From positions 49,678-113,677 of IMG/VR virus record IMGVR_UViG_3300024239_000016: a stretch of 64,000 bases of DNA. One strand, 5' to 3'. The translations under genes were made by a program, and so were the position numbers. Positions 8,061-19,620 of this stretch are shown piece by piece. Numbering within the stretch: the stretch's first letter is position 1; each line of letters opens with the position of its first letter. The DNA is from a virus. A model generated the notes under the pieces. It searched no databases. It was not told the DNA's origin and saw only the letters and a list, made by a program, of their open reading frames with translations.

Positions 8061-9563
8061 ATGCTTCAACAGAATTTACAGGTCCTGGCAAGTGCTCTTG
8101 GTCTTGATATTCATTATCTTCGTGAAAACGGCGGCGATCTCTCACAGCTGAGTGATGGTGACAAGACAAGCCTAGTAGCAGCACTGAACTCATTAAAAGA
8201 ATACGCAAATTCTTACTTGGATGGCGTCATTCATGACGCATCTCAGTCGTCAGATCACGCGTACTCATCCAACAAGATTGAAGCCACTATTCAGTCAGCG
8301 ATTGACCTGATCAAGGTAGGCGCTCCCGAGGCATACGACACGCTGAAGGAAATCGCTGACTACATCGCTCAAGATCAGACACAGATGTCAGGTATTTTGA
8401 CATCGATGGAAAAGCTTGTGCGCTACGATCAGACCATGTCTTTGACTGAGCCGGAAAAGGCAAACCTTCACAACACTCTTGCCCTGGCCATCAGTCAGAT
8501 TGGCATCGAGAGCATCTACGCCGGCTTCCAGCCCAAGCAATTCAAAGATGTGGAATTCTACGTTCCTCACTCTCTAGGCGGACGTATCTTCCAGATCATT
8601 GGCGATGATGTCTCGCAGGTAGCTATCGCCAACACATCGACACGTGCCCCGTATCCACCGAATCAGTTCATCAGCACTGAGTTCAGTAGCGATGGCGAGT
8701 TCTTCCTCTCGCATGAAGGTTACCTGTCCGGTTATCCGAAGGTTCGTGTTGTGGCCCACAAGCGCAATGCCAATGGCACATTTGCAGAAACTGGCTATTA
8801 CGATAACGTCCTTGCTCAATCCATGCTGGCAAGTAAGCAGTATCCAAAGGTCGTCTACAAGCAGACTGCAAATCAAACTCAAAACTGGGCTCAGATCCTC
8901 GGCGTTAATGCGATTGATCGCAGCGATCCAGTTCAGCCTGTTGCAGCCGCCATCCATGGCAAAATGGCAGAAACTCGCGATGGTAGTAAACTAGCTGTCG
9001 CTATGGCTAATGGCAGTCTGCATATCCTCAGTGTTACGGATGGCAATCCGATGTCTTTTGCTCAGGCTGGTTCTGTGCCGGCTTCGCAATTCACAAATGC
9101 GATTTGCAATAACAGTATGGCATTTAGCCCGGATGGCAAGATCCTAGCAGGCGCTTCGCGATACAATGCAACGAAGCAACTGGCTATTGTGGCTACTAGC
9201 GGTGGCGATTTTACTCAGCGCGTTTTACATGCGTTTGATACCGAGCAGGCGCTCCAGCCACGACTCTTCTGGGTTGACTCCAACACCATCGTTGTACAAC
9301 AGAATACCAACTTGCAATTCTACCGTATTCTGTTCGATGGAGTGAATGTCAGCGTGAGTCTCGTCAAGACGCTACCAGTGCCAGTCGGTATGATCATCGA
9401 CGGCGTGACCGATGACGGCCGGCATATCTTCATGCGTACTTTGGCAGGAGGAATGCGAATTCTTCGCCATGTCAGTGATTACCAGTACGATGTTCTTGCC
9501 AATATCACCACTGGTCCGACCACACTGGAATTGTCGCACACAAACTCTCGCCTTCTCGATTAA
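8061..9563 (+). CDS. putative fibre/receptor-binding protein with C-terminal beta-propeller
   Basis: phage fibre N-terminal motifs KTSLVAALN and GAPEAYDTLKEIADYI; WD40-like repeats FSSDGEF and FSPDGKILA. Confidence 0.65.
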   Translation: MLQQNLQVLASALGLDIHYLRENGGDLSQLSDGDKTSLVAALNSLKEYANSYLDGVIHDASQSSDHAYSSNKIEATIQSAIDLIKVGAPEAYDTLKEIADYIAQDQTQMSGILTSMEKLVRYDQTMSLTEPEKANLHNTLALAISQIGIESIYAGFQPKQFKDVEFYVPHSLGGRIFQIIGDDVSQVAIANTSTRAPYPPNQFISTEFSSDGEFFLSHEGYLSGYPKVRVVAHKRNANGTFAETGYYDNVLAQSMLASKQYPKVVYKQTANQTQNWAQILGVNAIDRSDPVQPVAAAIHGKMAETRDGSKLAVAMANGSLHILSVTDGNPMSFAQAGSVPASQFTNAICNNSMAFSPDGKILAGASRYNATKQLAIVATSGGDFTQRVLHAFDTEQALQPRLFWVDSNTIVVQQNTNLQFYRILFDGVNVSVSLVKTLPVPVGMIIDGVTDDGRHIFMRTLAGGMRILRHVSDYQYDVLANITTGPTTLELSHTNSRLLD

Positions 9564-9574
9564 GTCGATATTCT

Positions 9575-9617
9575 ATACATCACTACCGGGCAATGCCCGG
9601 TAGTGATGTATTTTTTT
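9575..9617 (+). terminator. rho-independent terminator
   Basis: 17 bp perfect stem, AAT loop, T-tract. Confidence 0.75.
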
Positions 9618-9624
9618 ATAAAAA

Positions 9625-9632
9625 CATATTAC
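9625..9632 (+). promoter_or_regulatory. phiKZ-type early promoter motif (YATATTAC)
   Basis: CATATTAC after an AT-rich tract; the same motif recurs in several intergenic regions. Confidence 0.55.
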
Positions 9633-9675
9633 TTTACTGATTTCCTACCATTGTTAATTTGGGAGAAGCAAATAC

Positions 9676-10056
9676 ATGAACAACCGACGCATTCGTCTCA
9701 AATCAATTCGCGCGAAGCTTTATAAAGAGAACTGTATTATTCCGACCATAATCAGGAATGGTAAAGTCCTACGCAGAGCTCAACTGCGTTACGCCTACAT
9801 CGAAAGCCGCCCACGTAAAAACAATAAATCAAAACACAAATACGATACCTTTGCACATATCACATGCCCAAGTTGCGATGGCTTTGCTAGTCAGTACCGC
9901 TATGCCGAAACCGAAGAAGAACAAGCATATGAAGAAAAACAAATGTTGAAGCGCGGAGGCATTTTTCCGTATGCTGACATGTACGCATGTCGTGCAAAAA
10001 TCGGCAATGGTGTATGTAGTAGCGGTTATAGCAACAAGCGCTATCGGTTTTCTTAG
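9676..10056 (+). CDS. basic hypothetical protein with Cys motifs
   Basis: GGGAG RBS; CPSC and C-terminal Cys residues. Confidence 0.65.
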   Translation: MNNRRIRLKSIRAKLYKENCIIPTIIRNGKVLRRAQLRYAYIESRPRKNNKSKHKYDTFAHITCPSCDGFASQYRYAETEEEQAYEEKQMLKRGGIFPYADMYACRAKIGNGVCSSGYSNKRYRFS

Positions 10057-10102
10057 TGATTTAATTCGCAGCACATTTATGTGATGTAAAGTAACAAACA
10101 AA

Positions 10103-10821
10103 GGGCACCTGCTAATAAACTATCGGTAGTCAACGTGGCTGGCTATTAGAAATAATACCACGCTGCGATGGCGTAACGATAGAGTCGAAAGAAGCATAAA
10201 ACATCTATTCATTTTGGCACGCGTAAAACCTTAAAAAGATAGATGGGTGAATCTGTTCAAAGTCGGCGAATGCTGCGTCCGTTAGGACACGCTAACGCCG
10301 AGCCAAAACAAGTTGTCCTATTCAGCCTAACCTACCTTTAGTCGGATGTACTTGACCGGTAGTATGGCGGGGATGTAAATGCTAGTTCAGGTAAAACACT
10401 ACGGTGTAACTAGAATCTCGGGAGAGATCTAAAGACAGGCATTCTTGTGAGGTGTAGAGAGATGATGGACAGGACCTAAGTCTGCTGGCGATGATGTTTG
10501 TCGTTAAAACGAAGTTAACTCGATAGTGATATGGATAAATTGCCTATCATGATGACCGTGTTAGCGTAAGGAAGCAGATATGGTAAAGGCGATCTCCGGA
10601 CTACAACAATAGATGGACATGACGCGTGCGTTGCGAGACAGCACAAATCACATACATCTCTGATCGTCGTAAGACGATGTAGTGAGTTTCCTTAAACTAA
10701 AAGTGCATCCCAGTGCTGGCCTTATTAGCATTGCGTAGCCTGACAGCGTAACAGGTTAATTCTAGTTAAAGAAGAAAGTGCTCATGGATTAATACTAGGT
10801 AATCGCATCCATGACAGATGT
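10103..10821 (+). ncRNA. large ncRNA containing a group I intron catalytic core (copy 1; core about 10202-10686)
   Basis: P3 TCTGTTC(10252-58)/GGACAGG(10467-73); P4 TCGGCG/CGCCGA; P6 GCC/GGT; P7 G-A-GAGAT(10459-63)/ATCTC-C(10592-97); P9 ACTACA/TGTAGT; candidate omega-G at 10686. Confidence 0.75.
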
Positions 10822-10906
10822 GCCCAGGTGGCGAAATTGGTAGACGCACCAGATTTAGGTTCTGGCGCCTTCGGGTGTAGGGGTTCGATTCCCCTCTTGG
10901 GCACCA
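10822..10906 (+). tRNA. tRNA-Leu(TAG)
   Basis: cloverleaf; CCAGA-TTTAGGT-TCTGG anticodon arm, variable arm, GTTCGA, CCA end. Confidence 0.95.
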
Positions 10907-10908
10907 AA

Positions 10909-10996
10909 GGAGATATGGCTGAGTGACTTAAGGTACTCCCCTGCTAAGGGAGCGTACAGAAATGTATCGTTGGCTCGAATCCAACTATCTCCGCCA
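10909..10996 (+). tRNA. tRNA-Ser(GCT)
   Basis: GGAGATA/TATCTCC acceptor, CTGCTAA loop, long variable arm, GCCA end; atypical T loop CTCGAAT. Confidence 0.9.
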
Positions 10997-11019
10997 AGAA
11001 TTCAATAGTTGTTTTCATT

Positions 11020-11544
11020 GTGAGGGATCGAATGAAAAATCGTGTCAGTAAATACTTGACTAAGAAGTGCGCTCTGGAACTGCGTATCGTAATTGAGAAT
11101 TTCAATTACGATAAAATCACCGATGTTCAGCACATGACCGGTGTGACCGGTAGGCTTTGGCAAGCAGTTGGCTCGGAATTTGATGCACTCCAGTTAATTT
11201 TAATTGATTTTGAGCTGCTCCCAGATAACAAAACCGAAGCTACCTGCTATATTTTCGTGAGTATCGGCTACAATCCATCTGATGCTCTGCCCGCGTTACA
11301 TCAGCTCCAGTTGTTTATTGACAAATACTCAGCGCGACTTGCCGATACAGACGTAACTCCCGCTAAGCTTCGTATGGATGGGGTATCAAAAGCATTTCGC
11401 TTACAAGCATCAAAGCGCGCCGAATTTTTAGGTGATAAACTTGACGCCTCTATTTTCTTCAATCCTTTGCGTAAGAAAGTGTTGCGTGTCATTGCGGATG
11501 TGCACGAAAACTGCACAGGAACTCTGTGCATTGAGCTAAAGTAA
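11020..11544 (+). CDS. hypothetical protein
   Basis: 174 aa ORF between tRNAs; start may be ATG 11032. Confidence 0.65.
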   Translation: MRDRMKNRVSKYLTKKCALELRIVIENFNYDKITDVQHMTGVTGRLWQAVGSEFDALQLILIDFELLPDNKTEATCYIFVSIGYNPSDALPALHQLQLFIDKYSARLADTDVTPAKLRMDGVSKAFRLQASKRAEFLGDKLDASIFFNPLRKKVLRVIADVHENCTGTLCIELK

Positions 11545-11549
11545 AGACC

Positions 11550-11623
11550 GCCCCCGTAGCATGAAGGTCGTGCAGTTGATTTGTAATCATCAGGTGACAG
11601 TTCGATTCTGTCCGGGAGCACCA
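11550..11623 (+). tRNA. tRNA-Thr(TGT)
   Basis: TTTGTAA anticodon loop, GTTCGATT T loop, ACCA end; mismatches in acceptor and anticodon stems. Confidence 0.85.
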
Positions 11624-11651
11624 ATTTAAAATTTCAATCAGGAGAATTACC

Positions 11652-11840
11652 ATGTGGCCAGATCCAGCATGGTACTTCGATGATTTAAGTATTTTCAAAT
11701 ACTGGGTAGATCAATTCTATTCGATGGCTTGCAAACTCCGCTCCATCTTTAGCTGGCAGGCTGAAGAGGACCCATCCGTTACTGCCATGACGGAAGACGG
11801 TAGCAAGCTCGATTGGAAATTACCGCCCCTTCGGGGGTAA
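11652..11840 (+). CDS. small Trp/Asp-rich hypothetical protein
   Basis: AGGAG RBS; 62 aa. Confidence 0.55.
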   Translation: MWPDPAWYFDDLSIFKYWVDQFYSMACKLRSIFSWQAEEDPSVTAMTEDGSKLDWKLPPLRG

Positions 11841-11859
11841 TCATCAGAGTACCACACAA

Positions 11860-12110
11860 ACCGGAACCAGTTCCTGTACCGGTAGCTTTAAGCTCAATAG
11901 CCTCGTAGGAGGGTGAGGGATAGTTAATGGGCGCTATATCGACTTTGTCGTGATACCCATGAAATCGGTTAGCAGAGCCGATGGGCGACTTCTGTTAGTA
12001 TCAAGCGTTGAGGCTATGTTCAGGATTGTATTTGGGCATTCGACCATCTGTTTTAGATGTCTGGTTCGACTCCAGTAATGATACGATCTAGGGATCCCTT
12101 GGGTCCCTAT
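11860..12110 (+). ncRNA. putative structured ncRNA with tRNA-like T-arm
   Basis: ORF-free; ATAGCCTC/GAGGCTAT enclosing stem; CTGG-TTCGACT-CCAG T-arm; terminal hairpin. Confidence 0.4.
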
Positions 12111-12157
12111 TCTAAAGTGATTTATTTTACAATTATTTTAGAATAGTAAACTTTAAT

Positions 12158-12242
12158 CCGCGGGTGGCGAAATTGGTAGACGCATGAGACTTAAAATCTC
12201 ACACCGAAAGGTATATGGGTTCGACTCCCATACCGCGGACCA
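12158..12242 (+). tRNA. tRNA-Leu(TAA)
   Basis: TGAGA-CTTAAAA-TCTCA anticodon arm, GTTCGAC, ACCA end. Confidence 0.92.
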
Positions 12243-12273
12243 TATCTTCTTAATCAACGAAAGAAAGAAAATT

Positions 12274-12621
12274 ATGTCACGTAAAGAACATAAAGGTCAA
12301 AAATTCGATCTTGCTTACGGCGTAGATCGCTATAGTGGGGCTTTCGTTCAGCTCTTCCAATCTCCGATGGACGATCAAGATGGCGCTTTCCTCAACGTGG
12401 ATTCCCACGGAGTGCGTCTCGATGAAGATCATCCCGAACTGCCCACTGAGCTCACCAAAGTGATCTCGGGGCTGAAATTGGCTTTCTGCCGTTATAAGGA
12501 AGCTCACAACGATAATCCGAATCTCTCGGTCGATCATGTGCTGCATGTTGCCCGCGCAGCTGATCAATTCGATACCTTCTCGGAAAAAGAAGTGTATCAG
12601 GTCTTTGGCGATAACGCTTGA
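12274..12621 (+). CDS. hypothetical protein
   Basis: ATG at 12274; the longer ORF call overlaps the tRNA. Confidence 0.65.
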   Translation: MSRKEHKGQKFDLAYGVDRYSGAFVQLFQSPMDDQDGAFLNVDSHGVRLDEDHPELPTELTKVISGLKLAFCRYKEAHNDNPNLSVDHVLHVARAADQFDTFSEKEVYQVFGDNA

Positions 12622-12632
12622 AAAAAAAAAAG

Positions 12633-13200
12633 CATGTGCTCGCTATTGTCTGAATAGTAAAGAAAGCACGGACTTACTGAGTCCGATAGTGAGGCAGTCC
12701 TGCATTGTCGTCAGATCAAGGCCTATTCATGATAGGTACAGTTTGACATCAGACTCTGGCAGTTAGGCTGATCAGAAGTGGAGCCGTGATAGTTCCGGAT
12801 TTCGCAAAACCCTCAGATTACTTCTGTGGTCAGATGCGAGAGATGATGGAGTACCAGTGTCGAAGAGTGTGCGAGGGTGAACCTAGCGCTCTTAAACGGT
12901 CGACTAAATCAGAACTGATATTTGGCTATCGGCGATGAGGATTGGTTTAGAATCATGCCAATGTTCGAAATCCAAGTTCAAGGAGTTTATTGGGTAGTGA
13001 TGAGAGAACTATCCTAGATACGTTTTCTCATCACTAGAACAGACGACATCCAGGCGAAACTGGGTTAAGTGAACTAGACCCACCAATCCATAGCACATAG
13101 GTGAATACGCACTCCCTTAGGTCTAGAGTGTCAGTAGTTCGCGCGGACTACCTCGACAGCATCGCCCTTGCAAAGCGGTGCTGTCCTGGAAGTGCGCATG
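12633..13200 (+). ncRNA. large multistem ncRNA of about 570 nt (ROOL/GOLLD-like candidate)
   Basis: closing stem CATGTGC/GCGCATG, long-range TGTCGTC/GACGACA, many internal hairpins; ends 7 nt before tRNA-Pro. Confidence 0.6.
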
Positions 13201-13207
13201 AAATTGT

Positions 13208-13284
13208 CCGTTCGTAGCGCAGCCTGGTAGCGCATCTGTTTTGGGAACAGAGGGTCGCAAGTTCGAATTTTGCCGGGCGGACCA
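13208..13284 (+). tRNA. tRNA-Pro(TGG)
   Basis: TCTGT-TTTGGGA-ACAGA anticodon arm, GTTCGAAT, ACCA end. Confidence 0.93.
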
Positions 13285-13308
13285 TTCTTATTTTACCAAG
13301 AGGTAATC

Positions 13309-13551
13309 ATGCAATCAAACCATAAAAAAGATGGCGTTGAAGCAATAAAAGAGCTGATCAAAGAAGTATGGAATACGCTCAAACGGCTTATCGAAGACTG
13401 TTTCATTAAACTGATGCAAAAGCACATCAGGTGCTCTAGCAAAAAGAATTGGGTAGCGCGCAGCTCAAGTATTTTTTCTTTGGGCGACCGCAAATTACTT
13501 GGCATCAGGCGACATACCCCTGATCGTTGGCTAGGTTATATTCGGAATTAG
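13309..13551 (+). CDS. small basic hypothetical protein
   Basis: GAGGT RBS before ATG 13309. Confidence 0.55.
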   Translation: MQSNHKKDGVEAIKELIKEVWNTLKRLIEDCFIKLMQKHIRCSSKKNWVARSSSIFSLGDRKLLGIRRHTPDRWLGYIRN

Positions 13552-13572
13552 TAACATTGGGAGCGGTGTAAC

Positions 13573-13998
13573 ATGAATCTTCATTTCACATCCCCTAGCG
13601 TTGGGAGCGATGTATGGATTGTCAAGGAGGATAAAATCCTTGGCACTGGCGCTGTAGTGGGATTTGATGGACAAGATCGACTGAGTGTGATGTTAAAAGA
13701 CGCTGCAGCGAACGATCTACTTCCTCTGACTACCGATGACTTAAAAAGCATTGGTTATGGTTATTTATTTATCGGCTATGATGCGAATACGTGCGATTTA
13801 CATCGTAATCAGGCAATAGTCGATCTTATCAAAGATGACAGCCCTCTAATTGGCACTTCCATTGTTGATAAATTTAAACTCCGCTATGGTCTTGTTAACG
13901 ACCGTTTCAAAAATGTCCCTGGTTATCGCGAAGCGTGCATCATGGAAGTCGGCCAGTCATTGACTGAACTACCCCAGAGGTCCTGTGATGGTGCGTAG
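13573..13998 (+). CDS. hypothetical protein
   Basis: GGGAG RBS; 141 aa. Confidence 0.65.
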   Translation: MNLHFTSPSVGSDVWIVKEDKILGTGAVVGFDGQDRLSVMLKDAAANDLLPLTTDDLKSIGYGYLFIGYDANTCDLHRNQAIVDLIKDDSPLIGTSIVDKFKLRYGLVNDRFKNVPGYREACIMEVGQSLTELPQRSCDGA

Positions 13999-14542
13999 AA
14001 TATTTCAGAGCAGGGATTTACCGTGGCGTCAGCGTGTTACAATTGTTGTTGTCAACGATAACGGGAATGTCCTCATCGCTAATCAGCCCCCGTTACCGCC
14101 TTATAACGAAAAAATGCTGACCCTACCTGGAGGCGGCATTGAGCCAGGACAGACTCCAGAAGAGGCAGTAGCAGCTGAGCTTCTTGAAGAGGTTGGCGTC
14201 AAAGTAAGCGGCATTCAGGTACTTGACTGTCATACATTCGAAGAGCCGTTTACCGTGCTAAAGCCAGGAGAAGGTACCCCAGTTCAAATCGAGCGTCGCA
14301 AGTTGTTTAAAGGCGTACAATCTGTTGCTTATTTTGCCAAGTTCGAACGCACCATCAATGGTGGTAAAGGCACTGGCAATGATGCAATGGAATGGGAATG
14401 GTATCCGTTCCATAGGGCTACTGGAATAATGCTCGCTCAGCGTGCCCTGGCAATTAAAACTGGAAGAAATGGAAAGCTCCATATGTTCATGGCAGACGCG
14501 ATCAGGGTCGCTAAAGACCATTTTTATAAAATAGAAAGCTAA
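13988..14542 (+). CDS. Nudix hydrolase
   Basis: Nudix box LPGGGIEPGQTPEEAVAAELLEEVGV. Confidence 0.85.
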   Translation: MVRRIFQSRDLPWRQRVTIVVVNDNGNVLIANQPPLPPYNEKMLTLPGGGIEPGQTPEEAVAAELLEEVGVKVSGIQVLDCHTFEEPFTVLKPGEGTPVQIERRKLFKGVQSVAYFAKFERTINGGKGTGNDAMEWEWYPFHRATGIMLAQRALAIKTGRNGKLHMFMADAIRVAKDHFYKIES

Positions 14543-14559
14543 ACTGCTCGCTAGTATGA

Positions 14560-15560
14560 GCGGGTGAAGCTTCAATTAGGGCATTACCGAAAAATACGCT
14601 GGTAGTAGTGAAGAGATTCTTGTATCGATGACAGATAGCTGTCGGTATTTCCGTGTCATGGCGGATAGATCAGCGAGTACTTTACACGGAACAGCGTAAC
14701 CGAAAGGCGGTAAAACAACACCATGAAAGCGGACATCCGCGCGCACATGTGTAGTACCGGTCATACAGACCGGAACGAGCTACTCTGACGCGATGGAAAA
14801 AATGGGCTGCCATAGTGGAGAACTCTTAGTAGTGTTTAGGATAGCTGTGAGACAATGAAGCTCAGTCGCCAGGTTGAGTGGAGTCATCCTTGAAATAGCA
14901 GCCATAAACGGAGTTCAGTTGAATGCAGTGTGATGAATCGTACGCCGCGTGGCCAGGCGATGAAATCACATTCCTCGGAAAGTCGGCGAATGTTTGATGT
15001 GTAAGGCCGTTGGGTCTCCGTGAGAGCGGAGACTGGAACAAGGTGAAACGGCGTTGAGTCGTCAGTGCTAAACTAACGAACAACGAGGCTGGGTCGAAAG
15101 ATGCCGCTTACTGGATGTTCGAATCGTCCCACAATACTAACGCCGAGCCAAGTCTGTGTGATCCGTAATGGGAAAATCGCCTCTGTAAAAAAGTCCAGTG
15201 TGCGAGGATGCTGTTGCGAACTATCAGAAAGGTGTAGAGAGTAGACCCGAGGGACCTAAAACAATTTGTCGATAATAGCTATTGGATCACTTCATCGCGC
15301 GCCGCGGGGTGTTGGTCTAGTAACAGGTAGCTTAGATGGGTTGTCATGGTAGAGGCGTATTCCAGACCACAAACAAAATCAGGGCTCCTAAAGAAAGAGT
15401 AACGCCTGTTTCTGGTAGTGAAAACTATAGTGGTAGGCTTCCTAAGCCTGTATCTCCTGTTCTAGACATAGGGGATGGTTTCTTCAATAGAAGCAGTACC
15501 ACGAGATAATATCGGTATTCTTAGATACTATCGTAAAACTCGTGCACAAAGAGTTCAGTA
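14560..15560 (+). ncRNA. large ncRNA containing a group I intron catalytic core (copy 2; core about 14928-15436)
   Basis: P3 TCCTCGG(14972-78)/CCGAGGG(15247-53); P4 TCGGCG/CGCCGA; P7 G-A-GAGTA(15239-43)/TATTC-C(15358-63); P9 ACCAC/GTGGT with GGTAG-TGAAAA-CTAT hairpin; candidate omega-G at 15436. Confidence 0.75.
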
Positions 15561-15648
15561 GGGGGTTTGGCAGAGCGGTCGATTGCACTGGTCTTGAAAA
15601 CCAGCGATGGGAAACCATCCGTGAGTTCGAATCTCACAGCCCCCGCCA
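15561..15648 (+). tRNA. tRNA-Ser(TGA)
   Basis: CTGGT-CTTGAAA-ACCAG anticodon arm, long variable arm, GCCA end. Confidence 0.95.
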
Positions 15649-15658
15649 ACAAAGGAGA

Positions 15659-16119
15659 TCTGATTGCGAAGTCTTGGTCGTAAAGTTTTAATTCTTACGG
15701 CCTCGTGTCTTTTGGCAGCTACGTTTCCTCTTATCGTTTTTGGATTAAGCAACAAAGCTCAATCTGTCGTATGCTTACCGTCCCAGTTAGTAGGACTGGA
15801 TAACAGTAGTTCAGTACGGAAAGCAGATAGCTGGTTAAGTGATGTTGATGAACAATCGGCACGCCTTGCCGATCCGCAGCGCCCTATCAGCGCATATAAC
15901 CCAAATCGCCTAAGAGCTAATGCAAGACATGGTAAGGGACCATGAGTCTGCACCCAAACTACACCAGGTCACGTGTAAACACTCACAAACAAATACCACT
16001 CGTGTGGTAGAGCGTTAGAAGCTAAAGCTATGGTAGCCGAAGATGATTGTGGATCGTACATCGAACATAATTCCTGATCAGAGTTACGATCGATAAGATG
16101 CGACCATTGAAGACTCAGA
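15659..16119 (+). ncRNA. putative structured ncRNA of about 460 nt
   Basis: nested long-range stems AGTCTT/AAGACT, GGTCGTA/TGCGACC and TCTTATCG/CGATAAGA, plus internal hairpins. Confidence 0.55.
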
Positions 16120-16298
16120 GCCAACCAACGATTACGCTATAAAGAAGCAAAGGATTTATCCGAGCGCACTGTGTCGCATTAAAGGTGGATCCGACAGTTT
16201 CAATTGCAGACTGAGAAAGCTCTCAGTCTGCAATCCAGTTTGTATCTTACCGTGTACCAACTGGATTGCACGACTGTGTAAAAGTTAGATAGAGATAA

Positions 16299-16508
16299 AT
16301 GCCAAAATTTACTTTACATCAGTATAAATTAGTCAATTGCTCTTTAGCTAAAGCTCTTGGCGACAACAGCGCTAAAACCGTAATTGACCTTGCAAGAGGT
16401 CGAGTGTGCCCAATTTGCCATAATTATAAAAATGGCGGATGCGCGGCTTCTCGTAAATTGTTGGAGTTAAGAATGAACAAAAAAATTAACGACGAGATCC
16501 CACTGTAG
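16299..16508 (+). CDS. small protein with CPIC motif
   Basis: 69 aa ORF; purine-rich upstream sequence. Confidence 0.5.
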   Translation: MPKFTLHQYKLVNCSLAKALGDNSAKTVIDLARGRVCPICHNYKNGGCAASRKLLELRMNKKINDEIPL

Positions 16509-16564
16509 CGTTCAGCGAGAATGCCAAAAGATAGTCTTTTGGACGCTGAGCGCGGGAGAGAATC

Positions 16565-16819
16565 TTGTCCAGATCACTGCGTGTGTATAAAACCAAAGTT
16601 AAGAAATTGGCTAGGTTAAAAAGGATTACTGCCAAGAGTTACGCTGCCATCGGTTTTGTAAAGGTAAACGTTCTGTTACAGACTCCTAAAATCTGTAGTT
16701 GTCATATGTGCGGCAATGCAAGAAAGCACTATAGGCGCCGCACGCTTAAAGAAGAGCGCGACCTTGTTGATTACAAGGAGCAGCTTAAGAGCCTTTCGTT
16801 GATCCCTTCCTACAGGTAG
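16565..16819 (+). CDS. small basic Zn-finger-like protein (CSCHMCGN)
   Basis: GGGAG RBS, TTG start; CSCxxCGN motif seen in small phage proteins. Confidence 0.6.
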   Translation: MSRSLRVYKTKVKKLARLKRITAKSYAAIGFVKVNVLLQTPKICSCHMCGNARKHYRRRTLKEERDLVDYKEQLKSLSLIPSYR

Positions 16820-16824
16820 ACTAA

Positions 16825-17170
16825 CTTGGGTGATTGTAGGAGTAGCCCAAAAATAAGCCGTAACAAGCTGGGAAGAAAACCCAGTACCATTTTAGCGAAT
16901 GGTGAGGAGTGTTACGGAGCCATGATGAGTTATTTTAACCAACGACCAATCAGGATTCTCGAATCTAAATGCGACATATGGCCTTAGTGACATCATAGCG
17001 GCTGACCACTCGGCAATATATGGCTGGCCGGCCCGGTCCCTGGCGCGATCCGCGAGTGCTCGCGGATATCCGCCGCTGCCGACTTGTTGCAAATAGATGG
17101 ATCCAGATGTAACTCAATATTGGTGTACCGCAGCACGCCCCTAGGGGCGTGCTGTAGTTAATTTATTTTT
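16825..17170 (+). ncRNA. putative structured ncRNA ending in a terminator
   Basis: CCGTAACA/TGTTACGG multiway junction, GC-rich hairpins, terminator stem 17130-17155. Confidence 0.45.
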
Positions 17171-17234
17171 TATTTATTTTAGAAAATTCTTTTATTAATT
17201 TTTAATAAAAGAATCTTTTATAAGGAACAAAATC

Positions 17235-18476: not shown

Positions 18477-18851
18477 ATGTCCAGAACCGTTCGTAGGAAG
18501 AACTTGGCTTATTTGTACAATCGTTATGTCGAAAACATCGATTGCATTTATGTTATCGGTAACGTTATTTACATTAAGCGCGACTGGCGGTTTGAGCTGT
18601 GTGAGGTCATGAAGCTCAATCGCATCAACATGTCCGATCCGGATGCCTACGTCGCGTGCGAGCGCGCTCGCTTTCATTCGGACGCCAGGCGTATCAGCAG
18701 TCGCGAAAAGCCCAATAAATTTGGTCGCAAATACCTGCAACGCAGTTATCGTAACTATGTCAAAAATGCTATTCGCAATGCCGTTAAAACTGATCTGGAG
18801 AACTATCCTGTCATTCCGCGACGCTACATCTGCGCTGGCTACTTTGACTGA
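18477..18851 (+). CDS. small basic protein (MSRTVRRK type)
   Basis: GGGGAG RBS; Arg-rich. Confidence 0.65.
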   Translation: MSRTVRRKNLAYLYNRYVENIDCIYVIGNVIYIKRDWRFELCEVMKLNRINMSDPDAYVACERARFHSDARRISSREKPNKFGRKYLQRSYRNYVKNAIRNAVKTDLENYPVIPRRYICAGYFD

Positions 18852-18899: not shown

Positions 18900-19595
18900 T
18901 GAGTTCGGCCAAGTTTCATAGTCTGAATTCATTCCCGGTACTAACTTACCGTGAGATCGTAACGATCGGGTTGGAGTCGTATAATCGAGCACCTGTACCG
19001 CGCCGGGGAATCCTCTCGAGGATATACTCGCCGCATCGACATAATCGGCGCCTTGTAGTATTGGCCCCGACAGTCTGAGAAACACATCCGCGTAACTTCG
19101 GGTGGAGTTTACTTTACGTGGTTTTTTACTCGATGAATGCTTGTAGAATTGATGCGTTGTAAAGGACAAATCTTTTTAAACGATTACAAGCTCGACGGAG
19201 TCGGTTGCCCTACACTGACTCCGAGACAATAGATGCAGTAGGGATGGCTAGTTTCGCTAGGTCTGATTAAGGCGAGCGAAAGGTGGAGTGCAGATTTTTA
19301 GCAGATAGGTGTCGCGACCGACCCGTTAAATTTTTGCGCGTAGAAGCCCATAGTCAGCACCGCCGCCATCCGGGTGATGGCAAAAGTTAGATTGCAATTT
19401 TATCGAAAACACGCTCGTAGGCTGACATCACGTCGATCTGCTCTGCGTCGGTGTAAACAGCCGTGCAATCAGTTAGTAGCTCGCGATAGCTACCGTCTGG
19501 GTCGTGTGTGGAAACACGATCCTTTCGATAGTTCTTGCGTAAGGGGTACATCCCCTGTTTTACACACCTCCCTTCGGGGAGGTGTGTATTTTTTT
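18900..19595 (+). ncRNA. putative large structured ncRNA of about 700 nt
   Basis: promoter-to-terminator unit with no credible ORF; many stems and a candidate pseudoknot CCCTAC/GTAGGG. Confidence 0.55.
19561..19595 (+). terminator. rho-independent terminator
   Basis: TACACACCTCCC-TTCG-GGGAGGTGTGTA plus T-tract. Confidence 0.8.
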
Positions 19596-19620
19596 ATGCT
19601 GTTTAATTTAAGGAGACAAA

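Follow-up and report, generated by a model that had tools for sequence, protein, structure and literature searches.

The 64,000-nucleotide stretch of viral DNA analyzed here (the window, to which all coordinates refer unless otherwise noted) comes from a 194-kb IMG/VR virus record with an estimated completeness of 73%, and on that basis its source is a jumbo phage. Within a 10-kb stretch that is rich in non-coding sequence, an ORF-free span (10057-10821) lies between a 126-aa ORF (9676-10056) and a tRNA-Leu(UAG) gene, the first of six tRNAs; this span carries a large group I element that we refer to as copy 1, and a second such element, copy 2, is found farther downstream (Table 1). Neither the ORF nor the other proteins neighboring copy 1 have relatives among viral contigs or in a set of 5.8 billion proteins, and an allele lacking the element could therefore not be found by that route; a blastn search against the INPHARED phages also gave no match. 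Because a strong terminator (9575-9611) precedes the ORF, we consider that the ORF, copy 1, and the tRNAs probably form a single transcription unit; a scan for sigma-70 promoters gave a result no better than that for shuffled sequences. The tail between ribozyme and tRNA is 128 nt long in copy 1 vs 15-27 nt in three related elements that stand in front of a tRNA (L274, L276, and L421, described below). Downstream of copy 1, at 12158-12242, the window also holds an uninterrupted tRNA-Leu(UAA) gene, and such a gene likewise lies shortly downstream of the related elements L274 and L432. As a separate observation, a motif made up of a terminator plus TATTTTTTTAT is repeated at three borders of the RNA island (9600-9619, 17154-17173, and 19578-19597), possibly as transcription punctuation of the phage.

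Table 1. Features of the copy 1 region and of copy 2, in window coordinates.
Feature	Position	Strand	Remarks
Guide region AAA-GGG	10100..10105	+	directly 5' of P2 strand CACC; aligned in 17 family members
Ornate P2 domain	10106..10249	+	closed by CACC(U) 10106-10110 / (G)GGUG 10245-10249
P3-to-P7 5' core	10253..10472	+	R1 alignment 48.2 bits; pairs read directly
P3	10253-58 / 10467-72	+	CUGUUC/GGACAG; encloses J3/4 AAA, P4, J4/5 AA, P5, P6, P6a, J6/7, and P7 5' strand
P4	10262-68 / 10296-302	+	pairs read from sequence
P5	about 10272-10293	+	after J4/5 AA
P6	10303-04 / 10451-52	+	pairs read from sequence
P6a	10309-12 / 10444-47	+	with 131-nt insertion
P7	10459-63 / 10592-96	+	GAGAU/AUCUC; pairs read from sequence
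P8	10473..10584	+	11-nt tetraloop receptor CCUAAG 10475-80 / UAUGG 10579-83; stem UCUGC/GCAGA; 88-nt insertion
J8/7 and P7 3' strand	10585..10599	+	J8/7 AAAGGCG 10585-91; AUCUC 10592-96
P9 and terminal G	10600..10686	+	ACUAC 10600-04 / GUAGU 10679-83; inner hairpins; GUAA loop 10669-72; omega-G 10686
3' flank UUUCCUU	10687..10693	+	CCU 10690-92 complementary to guide GGG (C-G, C-G, U.G); U10693 pairs with A10102
Non-coding tail, 128 nt	10694..10821	+	ribozyme-to-tRNA gap; local hairpins, e.g., 10784-10814
tRNA-Leu(UAG)	10822..10906	+	ARAGORN and Rfam; opens the tRNA array 3' of copy 1
Copy 2, second free-standing IC3 ribozyme	14925..15437	+	R1 38.4 and 16.6 bits; different intron lineage (tree)

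The original prediction had described an ordered series of group I core blocks in copy 1, and these are present where it placed them, both in the pairs read from the sequence and in the alignment to a covariance model (R1, below). All of the core helices pair when read directly (P3, P4, P6, P6a, P7, P8, and P9), and P6 and P8 do contain the long insertions that had been claimed for them. A GAAA tetraloop (10149-10152), carried by a hairpin of the P2 domain (10133-10162), and the GUAA loop of P9 sit where relatives carry docking loops, so that the motifs for tertiary contacts (L2 GAAA, the P8 receptor, and the L9 GNRA loop) are retained, with a P8 receptor motif the same as that of the aligned tRNA introns. 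The J8/7-P7 segment fits the consensus GAAGGCAUAGUCC of 21 tRNA introns save for a compensated P7. P9 is followed by GAG, with G10686 as the terminal G, and aligns with CCAGACCACAAAC...GUGGUA(A/C)G| of tRNA-hosted introns, in which the tRNA exon pins down the 3' splice site; G10686 thus aligns with the splice-site G. Judged by its sequence, the interval 10100-10693 is a complete, fold-competent group I ribozyme of the IC3 (tRNA-intron) type with an intact core, having the core signature, the L2 tetraloop–P8 receptor contact motifs, and a P9 with a GNRA loop.

In one respect the description of the core needs revision. P7 had been singled out as non-canonical; it is indeed a compensated variant in which the first two pairs of the guanosine site (G-C, and A-U next to the bulged A) are kept, but it is not special, as GAG-type P7 helices are an ordinary natural variant found in many bona fide tRNA-Leu introns. 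GAGCA/UGCUC is present in five of these (L009, L010, L021, L055, and L057), and the tRNA-hosted L431 has GAGUG/CACUC. Among soil metagenome contigs with a GAGTG P7, 66 of the 67 that could be evaluated lie in split tRNA genes, 62 of them tRNA-Leu(UAA). A metagenome search with the pattern AGGTGTAGAGAGNNGANNNNNNGGACCTAA led to a separate family of compact soil tRNA-Leu introns rather than to orthologues of copy 1.

The Rfam group I model RF00028 yields no match to copy 1 at its gathering score or at E≤10, and in this formal sense the identification is not borne out; a purpose-built model nevertheless matches strongly. The Rfam model misses copy 1 because of insertions of 90-140 nt (approximately 140 nt in P2, 131 nt in P6, and 88 nt in P8), and compact relatives with the same core blocks do match it. 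To build the model, viral contigs were searched with two blocks of the window (AACGCCGAGCC...GGTGTAGAGA), giving 60 loci, several of which match RF00028 and 38 of which ARAGORN in intron mode places in a tRNA anticodon loop. The covariance model R1 was then made from 21 non-redundant phage tRNA group I introns, with helices P2, P3, P4, P5, P6, and P8 and no window sequence; its training introns were gathered by pattern from two of the window's own blocks, but they are validated independently by the Rfam matches and the tRNA hosts. Run with filters off on the 64-kb window, R1 aligns to copy 1 at 10250-10499 with 48.2 bits (E 4.5e-14) and to copy 2 at 14973-15252 (38.4 bits) and 15324-15376 (16.6 bits), and the next best score is 8.9 bits; with default filters, the alignment to copy 1 extends over 10195-10610 at 58.2 bits. 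R1 finds no further copy in the whole 194-kb record, the only other match being one of 14.5 bits outside the window (minus strand, 151859-151972 of the record) that is probably due to chance. Over 9000-17000, Rfam at E≤10 gives no match to GOLLD, ROOL, or a riboswitch. An alignment of copy 1, copy 2, and L094 made with MAFFT was too gapped and was discarded.

Group I introns of subclass IC3 are familiar from the anticodon loops of bacterial tRNAs, as in Azoarcus tRNA-Ile and cyanobacterial tRNA-Leu(UAA). Compared with 38 phage tRNA introns, copy 1 has the same order of core elements and a near-identical core (J3/4-P4, AACGCCGAGCC, GGUGUAGAGA, J8/7, and the terminal G), as well as P9 CCAGACYACAAAC...GURGU and the contact between the L2 GAAA and P8; it presumably also resembles the Azoarcus intron itself. 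Unlike these introns, it has neither tRNA exons nor an upstream P1, its guide GGG being matched downstream instead, and with insertions in P2, P6, and P8 it measures about 590 nt, vs about 200 nt for IC3 tRNA introns. The types of tRNA group I intron have been catalogued (bioRxiv 10.1101/2020.01.27.920355).

Closer relatives are found in a set of phage elements that share an ornate P2 domain, in which the guide is followed in order by CACC-ACCGAAAAAUG, GGUAGUCA, GGCGUAAC, UCGAAAGACGGUAAAACA, GGGUGAAU, and P3 (as seen in copy 1 and in phage elements obtained by pattern searches). The 17 family members were aligned on the conserved block CACC[AU][AC]CGAAAAAUG; the blocks GGTAGTCA, GGCGTAAC, TCGAAAGA, TAAAACA, and GGGTGAAT of P2 are common to copy 1, L094, L038, L274, L276, and L273, and P2 is at the same time the most variable part among relatives, with insertions at 10131-10135. 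Three further patterns, AAAGTCGGCGAATG, TAGTGGTANNNTTCCTWA, and AAAGGGCACCNNCNAANAA, gave mostly chance matches, their useful yield being L094, L274, and L272. Seven ornate members split a tRNA gene: L094, L271, L273, and L269 (tRNA-Leu(UAA)), L428 and L268 (a CAU tRNA), and L431. With the same P2 domain and core they are clear homologues of copy 1, but they interrupt a tRNA gene and have CUU| or CAU| upstream of a GAG or GUG guide, and copy 1 does neither. Eight members are free-standing, namely copy 1 and elements from other phages and one Hyphomonas MAG contig: L274, L276, and L421 precede a tRNA; L270, L272, and L038 precede an ORF; and L429 has no annotated downstream gene. Another two, L059 and L432 (the latter from a 266-kb phage), look like conventional introns in a hairpin or unknown RNA, with upstream sites GCGU| and ACUU|, respectively, and with flanks that form a 27-bp hairpin in L059. 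In a tree of the core (short columns, for which we claim no support), copy 1 falls among the ornate free-standing members on a long branch, and copy 2 falls beside a compact tRNA intron. By this tree, the two copies are not close paralogues, and the "compensatory" differences between them reflect an old divergence between intron lineages. Taken together, the best explanation for copy 1 is descent from ornate introns that split tRNA-Leu(UAA) in other large phages, with the exons since lost.

In several ornate phage introns, P5, P6, or P8 also holds inserts that are shaped like a tRNA and have a T arm of the GGUUCGA type (L431:1490-1560; the minus strand of L432, at about 1440-1520 of the reversed locus; and the P8 insertion of L269), representing tRNA-like domains or nested tRNA genes. 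Directly after the large group I element of L432, at 1932-2255 of the reversed locus, ARAGORN reports a tRNA split by a 231-nt insert in which R1 finds no group I match.

No host gene is recognizable at copy 1, as the original prediction had held. With introns permitted, ARAGORN detects a split tRNA around neither of the two copies (as controls, it does detect those at L094, L011, L016, L044, and L005), and ORF continuity across the element does not go beyond two codons. The lack of a homing endonuclease is borne out as well: no ORF inside copy 1 exceeds 43 aa, and the ORFs beside it and beside seven related loci match no nuclease family in Pfam or PHROGs. Nor is there a clear U-G P1 upstream, where the candidates are UCU or UUU triplets with two or three wobble pairs, 24-52 nt from the guide. 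Two further candidates for flanking structure were rejected: a decayed tRNA 5' half in 10057-10099 amounts to a loose resemblance by eye in which ARAGORN finds nothing, and pairing of the 5' and 3' flanks to enclose copy 1 has a duplex energy no better than 21% of shuffles, an enclosing flank stem being found only in L059.

These observations bear directly on whether copy 1 could be a conventional self-splicing intron that sits either in the non-coding leader of the tRNA precursor or where the upstream mRNA ends, and that ligates its exons by means of a weak upstream P1. The best 5' site would be UCU|UAG (10053|10054), giving a product that ends in ...Ser-Phe-Pro-stop and then continues to the tRNA. 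Consistent with such an arrangement, the core and terminal G are intact, UCU 10051-53 is the last codon before the stop of the ORF, the 3' flank reads on in frame as UUU CCU UAA, UUU 10687-89 can form a 3-bp P10 with AAA 10100-02, and L059 and L432 look conventional. However, UCU would pair with GGG by one Watson-Crick pair and two wobbles and is 49 nt away from it; a comparable upstream candidate is lacking altogether in L274, L421, and L429; the ORF has no homologue that would show its true C-terminus; and no contig from three other samples has a joint across 10054-10686. An intron at the 3' end of an ORF, with a flank encoding Phe-Pro-stop, also fails as a general rule, since L421 has a tRNA upstream rather than an ORF and others have no ORF ending nearby. 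On balance, we regard conventional splicing of copy 1 as unlikely.

A complementary partner for the guide is instead apparent downstream of the core (Table 1). The GGG of copy 1 aligns with the P1 guide triplet of the tRNA-hosted relatives, where GAG or GUG faces a CUU| or CAU| that marks the splice site in the anticodon loop, 9-25 nt upstream, and its match to CCU begins four nucleotides past the terminal G. The same layout recurs across the free-standing members, whose guide is either GGG (copy 1, L274, L270, L272, and L421) or GCC (L276, L038, and L429): all eight have a fully complementary triplet ending in U, with at least one extension pair, 4-8 nt past the terminal G. The two sides covary, GGG occurring with CCU in five of the eight and GCC with GGU in the other three, whereas none of the seven tRNA-hosted members has a downstream complementary site within 10 nt of its terminal G. 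A match of this kind would be expected by chance in 3-14% of cases per sequence, or with a probability of about 0.015 if only the two guide types or lineages are counted as independent. In the five GGG members, YUUCCUUA is kept after the terminal G in sequences that have otherwise diverged. Three of the free-standing members (L272, L276, and L038) have a further complementary triplet 13-15 nt upstream and could be conventional introns.

Based on this arrangement, we propose that copy 1 would form a P1-type helix in which sequence 3' of the core provides the substrate strand, with no upstream 5' exon, as if the ribozyme were circularly permuted in the P1 loop; the candidate cut sites are 10692|10693 and 10686|10687. 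With this helix docked, free guanosine would attack after U10692 (U10692|U10693) in the chemistry of the first splicing step, leaving a G on the new 5' end; alternatively, if the terminal G were bound in its site, G10686|U10687 could be hydrolyzed. Either reaction would sever the ribozyme's own transcript, and no ligation would be expected, because the 6-nt segment between the cut sites is too short to circularize. The cut would part the upstream mRNA and a stable ribozyme RNA from the downstream RNA bearing the tRNAs. Among the functions that had originally been offered, the comparative data thus favor cutting of the tRNA-bearing precursor, because the guide pairs with the 3' flank, and the splicing of an unknown non-coding RNA is left with no credible 5' splice site.

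Our preferred reading, which we put forward tentatively and at somewhat less than even confidence, is that copy 1 is a retained, exon-less IC3 ribozyme predicted to cleave itself just downstream of its core. The intact core with its tertiary-contact motifs, the absence of a split tRNA, the homology to tRNA-Leu(UAA) introns (L094, L271, and L273), the free-standing homologues in other phages, the guide-flank rule obeyed by eight of eight members, and, as described below, the low divergence of the core and the compost RNA contig on it all argue for it. Set against it, the proposed helix is only 3-4 pairs long, the UUCCUU flank can alternatively pair with AAGGAA (10570-75) in the P8 insertion, the terminal G has been kept although an attack by guanosine at 10692|10693 would not require it, and no RNA end or joint is visible at 10686-10693 in the contigs from other samples described below. 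The benefit to the phage is likewise debatable, as RNase P would remove the tRNA leader anyway. In addition, among the 17 family members copy 1 has the third-lowest R1 score (58 bits, with L270 at 67 and another thirteen at 84-117), which together with its long branch could mean relaxed constraint.

That last point raises the question of whether copy 1 is instead a stranded, decaying intron copy without function, whose tRNA-Leu(UAA) host was lost or was replaced by the intact gene at 12158-12242. Uninterrupted tRNA-Leu(UAA) genes do lie downstream in the window, in L274, and in L432; copy 1, copy 2, L270, and L432 stand out by the longest branches and the lowest model scores; and no function can be named with certainty. 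To weigh this, we compared the island with contigs from three other samples: X3 (DNA), X6 (wastewater), and X7 (a compost metatranscriptome). In X3, the ORF region 9650-9937 differs at 21 of 288 positions and the P2 region (9919-10275) at 22 plus 23 gap letters, vs 5 of 352 for the core (10267-10618); X6 has 13 differences in 226 plus 6 gaps in the ORF region, vs 3 in 250 and 2 in 174 in the core; and X7, with no contig on the ORF region, has 4 in 226 in the core (10255-10480). Divergence is thus 1.1-1.8% in the core over 10210-10633, vs 5.8-7.3% over the ORF region, with 10634-10821 covered by no contig of the three samples. The core of copy 1 is therefore 4-5 times less diverged than the neighboring coding sequence, which argues against a decaying relic, and from these sequences copy 1 appears to be retained by selection. 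Further evidence against decay comes from the core helices, every one of which still pairs, and the preserved tertiary motifs; from the eight free-standing members in unrelated contigs that obey the guide-flank rule with covariation; and from the fact that this densely packed phage genome has kept two ribozymes, each from its own lineage. We accordingly consider a functionless relic highly improbable.

The metatranscriptome also bears on whether the RNA is made. The X7 pieces, at 95-99% identity, all fall on non-coding parts of the island (10255-10480, 12673-13090, 14587-14761, 14838-14988, 16832-17000, and the tRNAs), with every purely coding bin of the 10-kb island at zero depth. These contigs are of low overall depth and are blind to RNA ends; they give no more than a hint that several large stable RNAs are made from the island. 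Separately, a contig of the wastewater sample X6 joins sequence resembling 14587-14721 (the 5' domain upstream of copy 2), followed by 36 other letters, to copy 1–like sequence from 10247 onward, so that in this relative the RNA modules occur in a different combination, with 14721 joined to 10247.

The layout of copy 1 recalls that of engineered group I endoribonucleases, trans-splicing ribozymes, and permuted intron-exon constructs, in which no 5' exon is attached to the guide and the strand to be cut is supplied separately. Copy 1 shares with them this layout and the predicted guanosine attack after a U.G pair; unlike them it is natural and would act in cis on a substrate only 4 nt past the terminal G, and, in contrast to permuted constructs, its 6-nt segment is too short for an RNA circle. 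The likeness could also be taken to indicate that copy 1 acts in trans, cutting or tagging another RNA that ends in YYU, such as a host or phage tRNA or mRNA. The order of 5' guide, full core, and 3' tail is that of engineered trans-cleaving and trans-splicing ribozymes, copy 1 has no 5' exon of its own, its RNA appears to accumulate in the compost metatranscriptome, and copy 2 is preceded by a faithful mimic of the tRNA elbow–binding L1 stalk (14833-14904). Yet a 3-nt guide would give almost no specificity, all eight free-standing members have a matching substrate in cis within a few nucleotides, and no L1 stalk–like element is found at copy 1 by Rfam at E≤10. We therefore give action in trans little credence.

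Group I RNAs are textbook selfish introns, and to our knowledge very few natural ones have another job. Two that do, the GIR1 lariat-capping ribozyme and the Clostridioides difficile ribozyme controlled by c-di-GMP, are group I derived and serve to form or select the point at which a downstream RNA begins, rather than simply to excise an intron. In GIR1, P1 and the usual arrangement of the guanosine site have been lost and a lariat is made, whereas the C. difficile RNA remains a splicing RNA and contains a riboswitch. Copy 1 is unlike both, in that neither a riboswitch nor a GIR1-type fold is seen in its region (Rfam, E≤10). A functional analogy may be drawn to theta (HDV-like) ribozymes, which self-cleave beside phage tRNA genes and have been proposed to process tRNA transcripts (PMC10879173). 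The analogy is one of function only, as theta ribozymes belong to another class, are very small, lie on the other side of the tRNA, and have no relation to copy 1 in sequence or fold. A full-text literature search on phage group I RNAs returned tRNA group I introns, IStrons, and phage introns in protein genes; it returned no account of an exon-less IC3 ribozyme within a phage tRNA array.

A broader conjecture, which we consider possible but doubtful, is that there exists a natural class of exon-less, P1-permuted group I cis-endonucleases in phage tRNA arrays, in which the guide would bind YYU behind the terminal G and attack by GTP would release the tRNA or mRNA transcript that follows and give it a new 5' end bearing a G-triphosphate, or in which the same layout would be used in trans on host RNAs. 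If so, the G-triphosphate end would be an RNA-made transcript boundary or cap, and a conserved family that has dropped its exons and placed its substrate strand behind the core, in front of tRNAs or ORFs, would constitute a new natural use of the group I fold. The exon-less family spans several unrelated large phages, and copy 1 itself lies in a 10-kb island whose large non-coding RNAs appear to be stable; if real, a family of this kind would also mean that RNAs like these escape annotation based on Rfam.

Copy 2 offers a partial parallel in the same island. It lies 123 nt before a tRNA-Ser(UGA), and the counterpart of its guide GCAG (14925-28) is CUGU (15448-51, within CUGU|AU 15448-53), 11-14 nt past the terminal G at about 15437, a weaker guide-flank match than in the copy 1 family. 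About 20 nt before this guide, a 72-nt element (14833-14904) matches positions 2135-2206 of bacterial 23S rRNA, the L1 stalk (helices 76-78), with 50.4 bits and with compensated changes in its stems. Because the L1 stalk is where protein L1 and the elbow of tRNAs bind, the element may be a tRNA- or L1-binding module; a repeat of part of it at 18600-18623 was set aside, as it lies inside an ORF and has no Rfam match. Finally, a 9-nt direct repeat, GAGTTCAGT, brackets copy 2 and its tail (14911-14919 and 15551-15559), its second occurrence ending one base before the tRNA-Ser, and could represent either a target-site duplication or two alternative partners for the guide.
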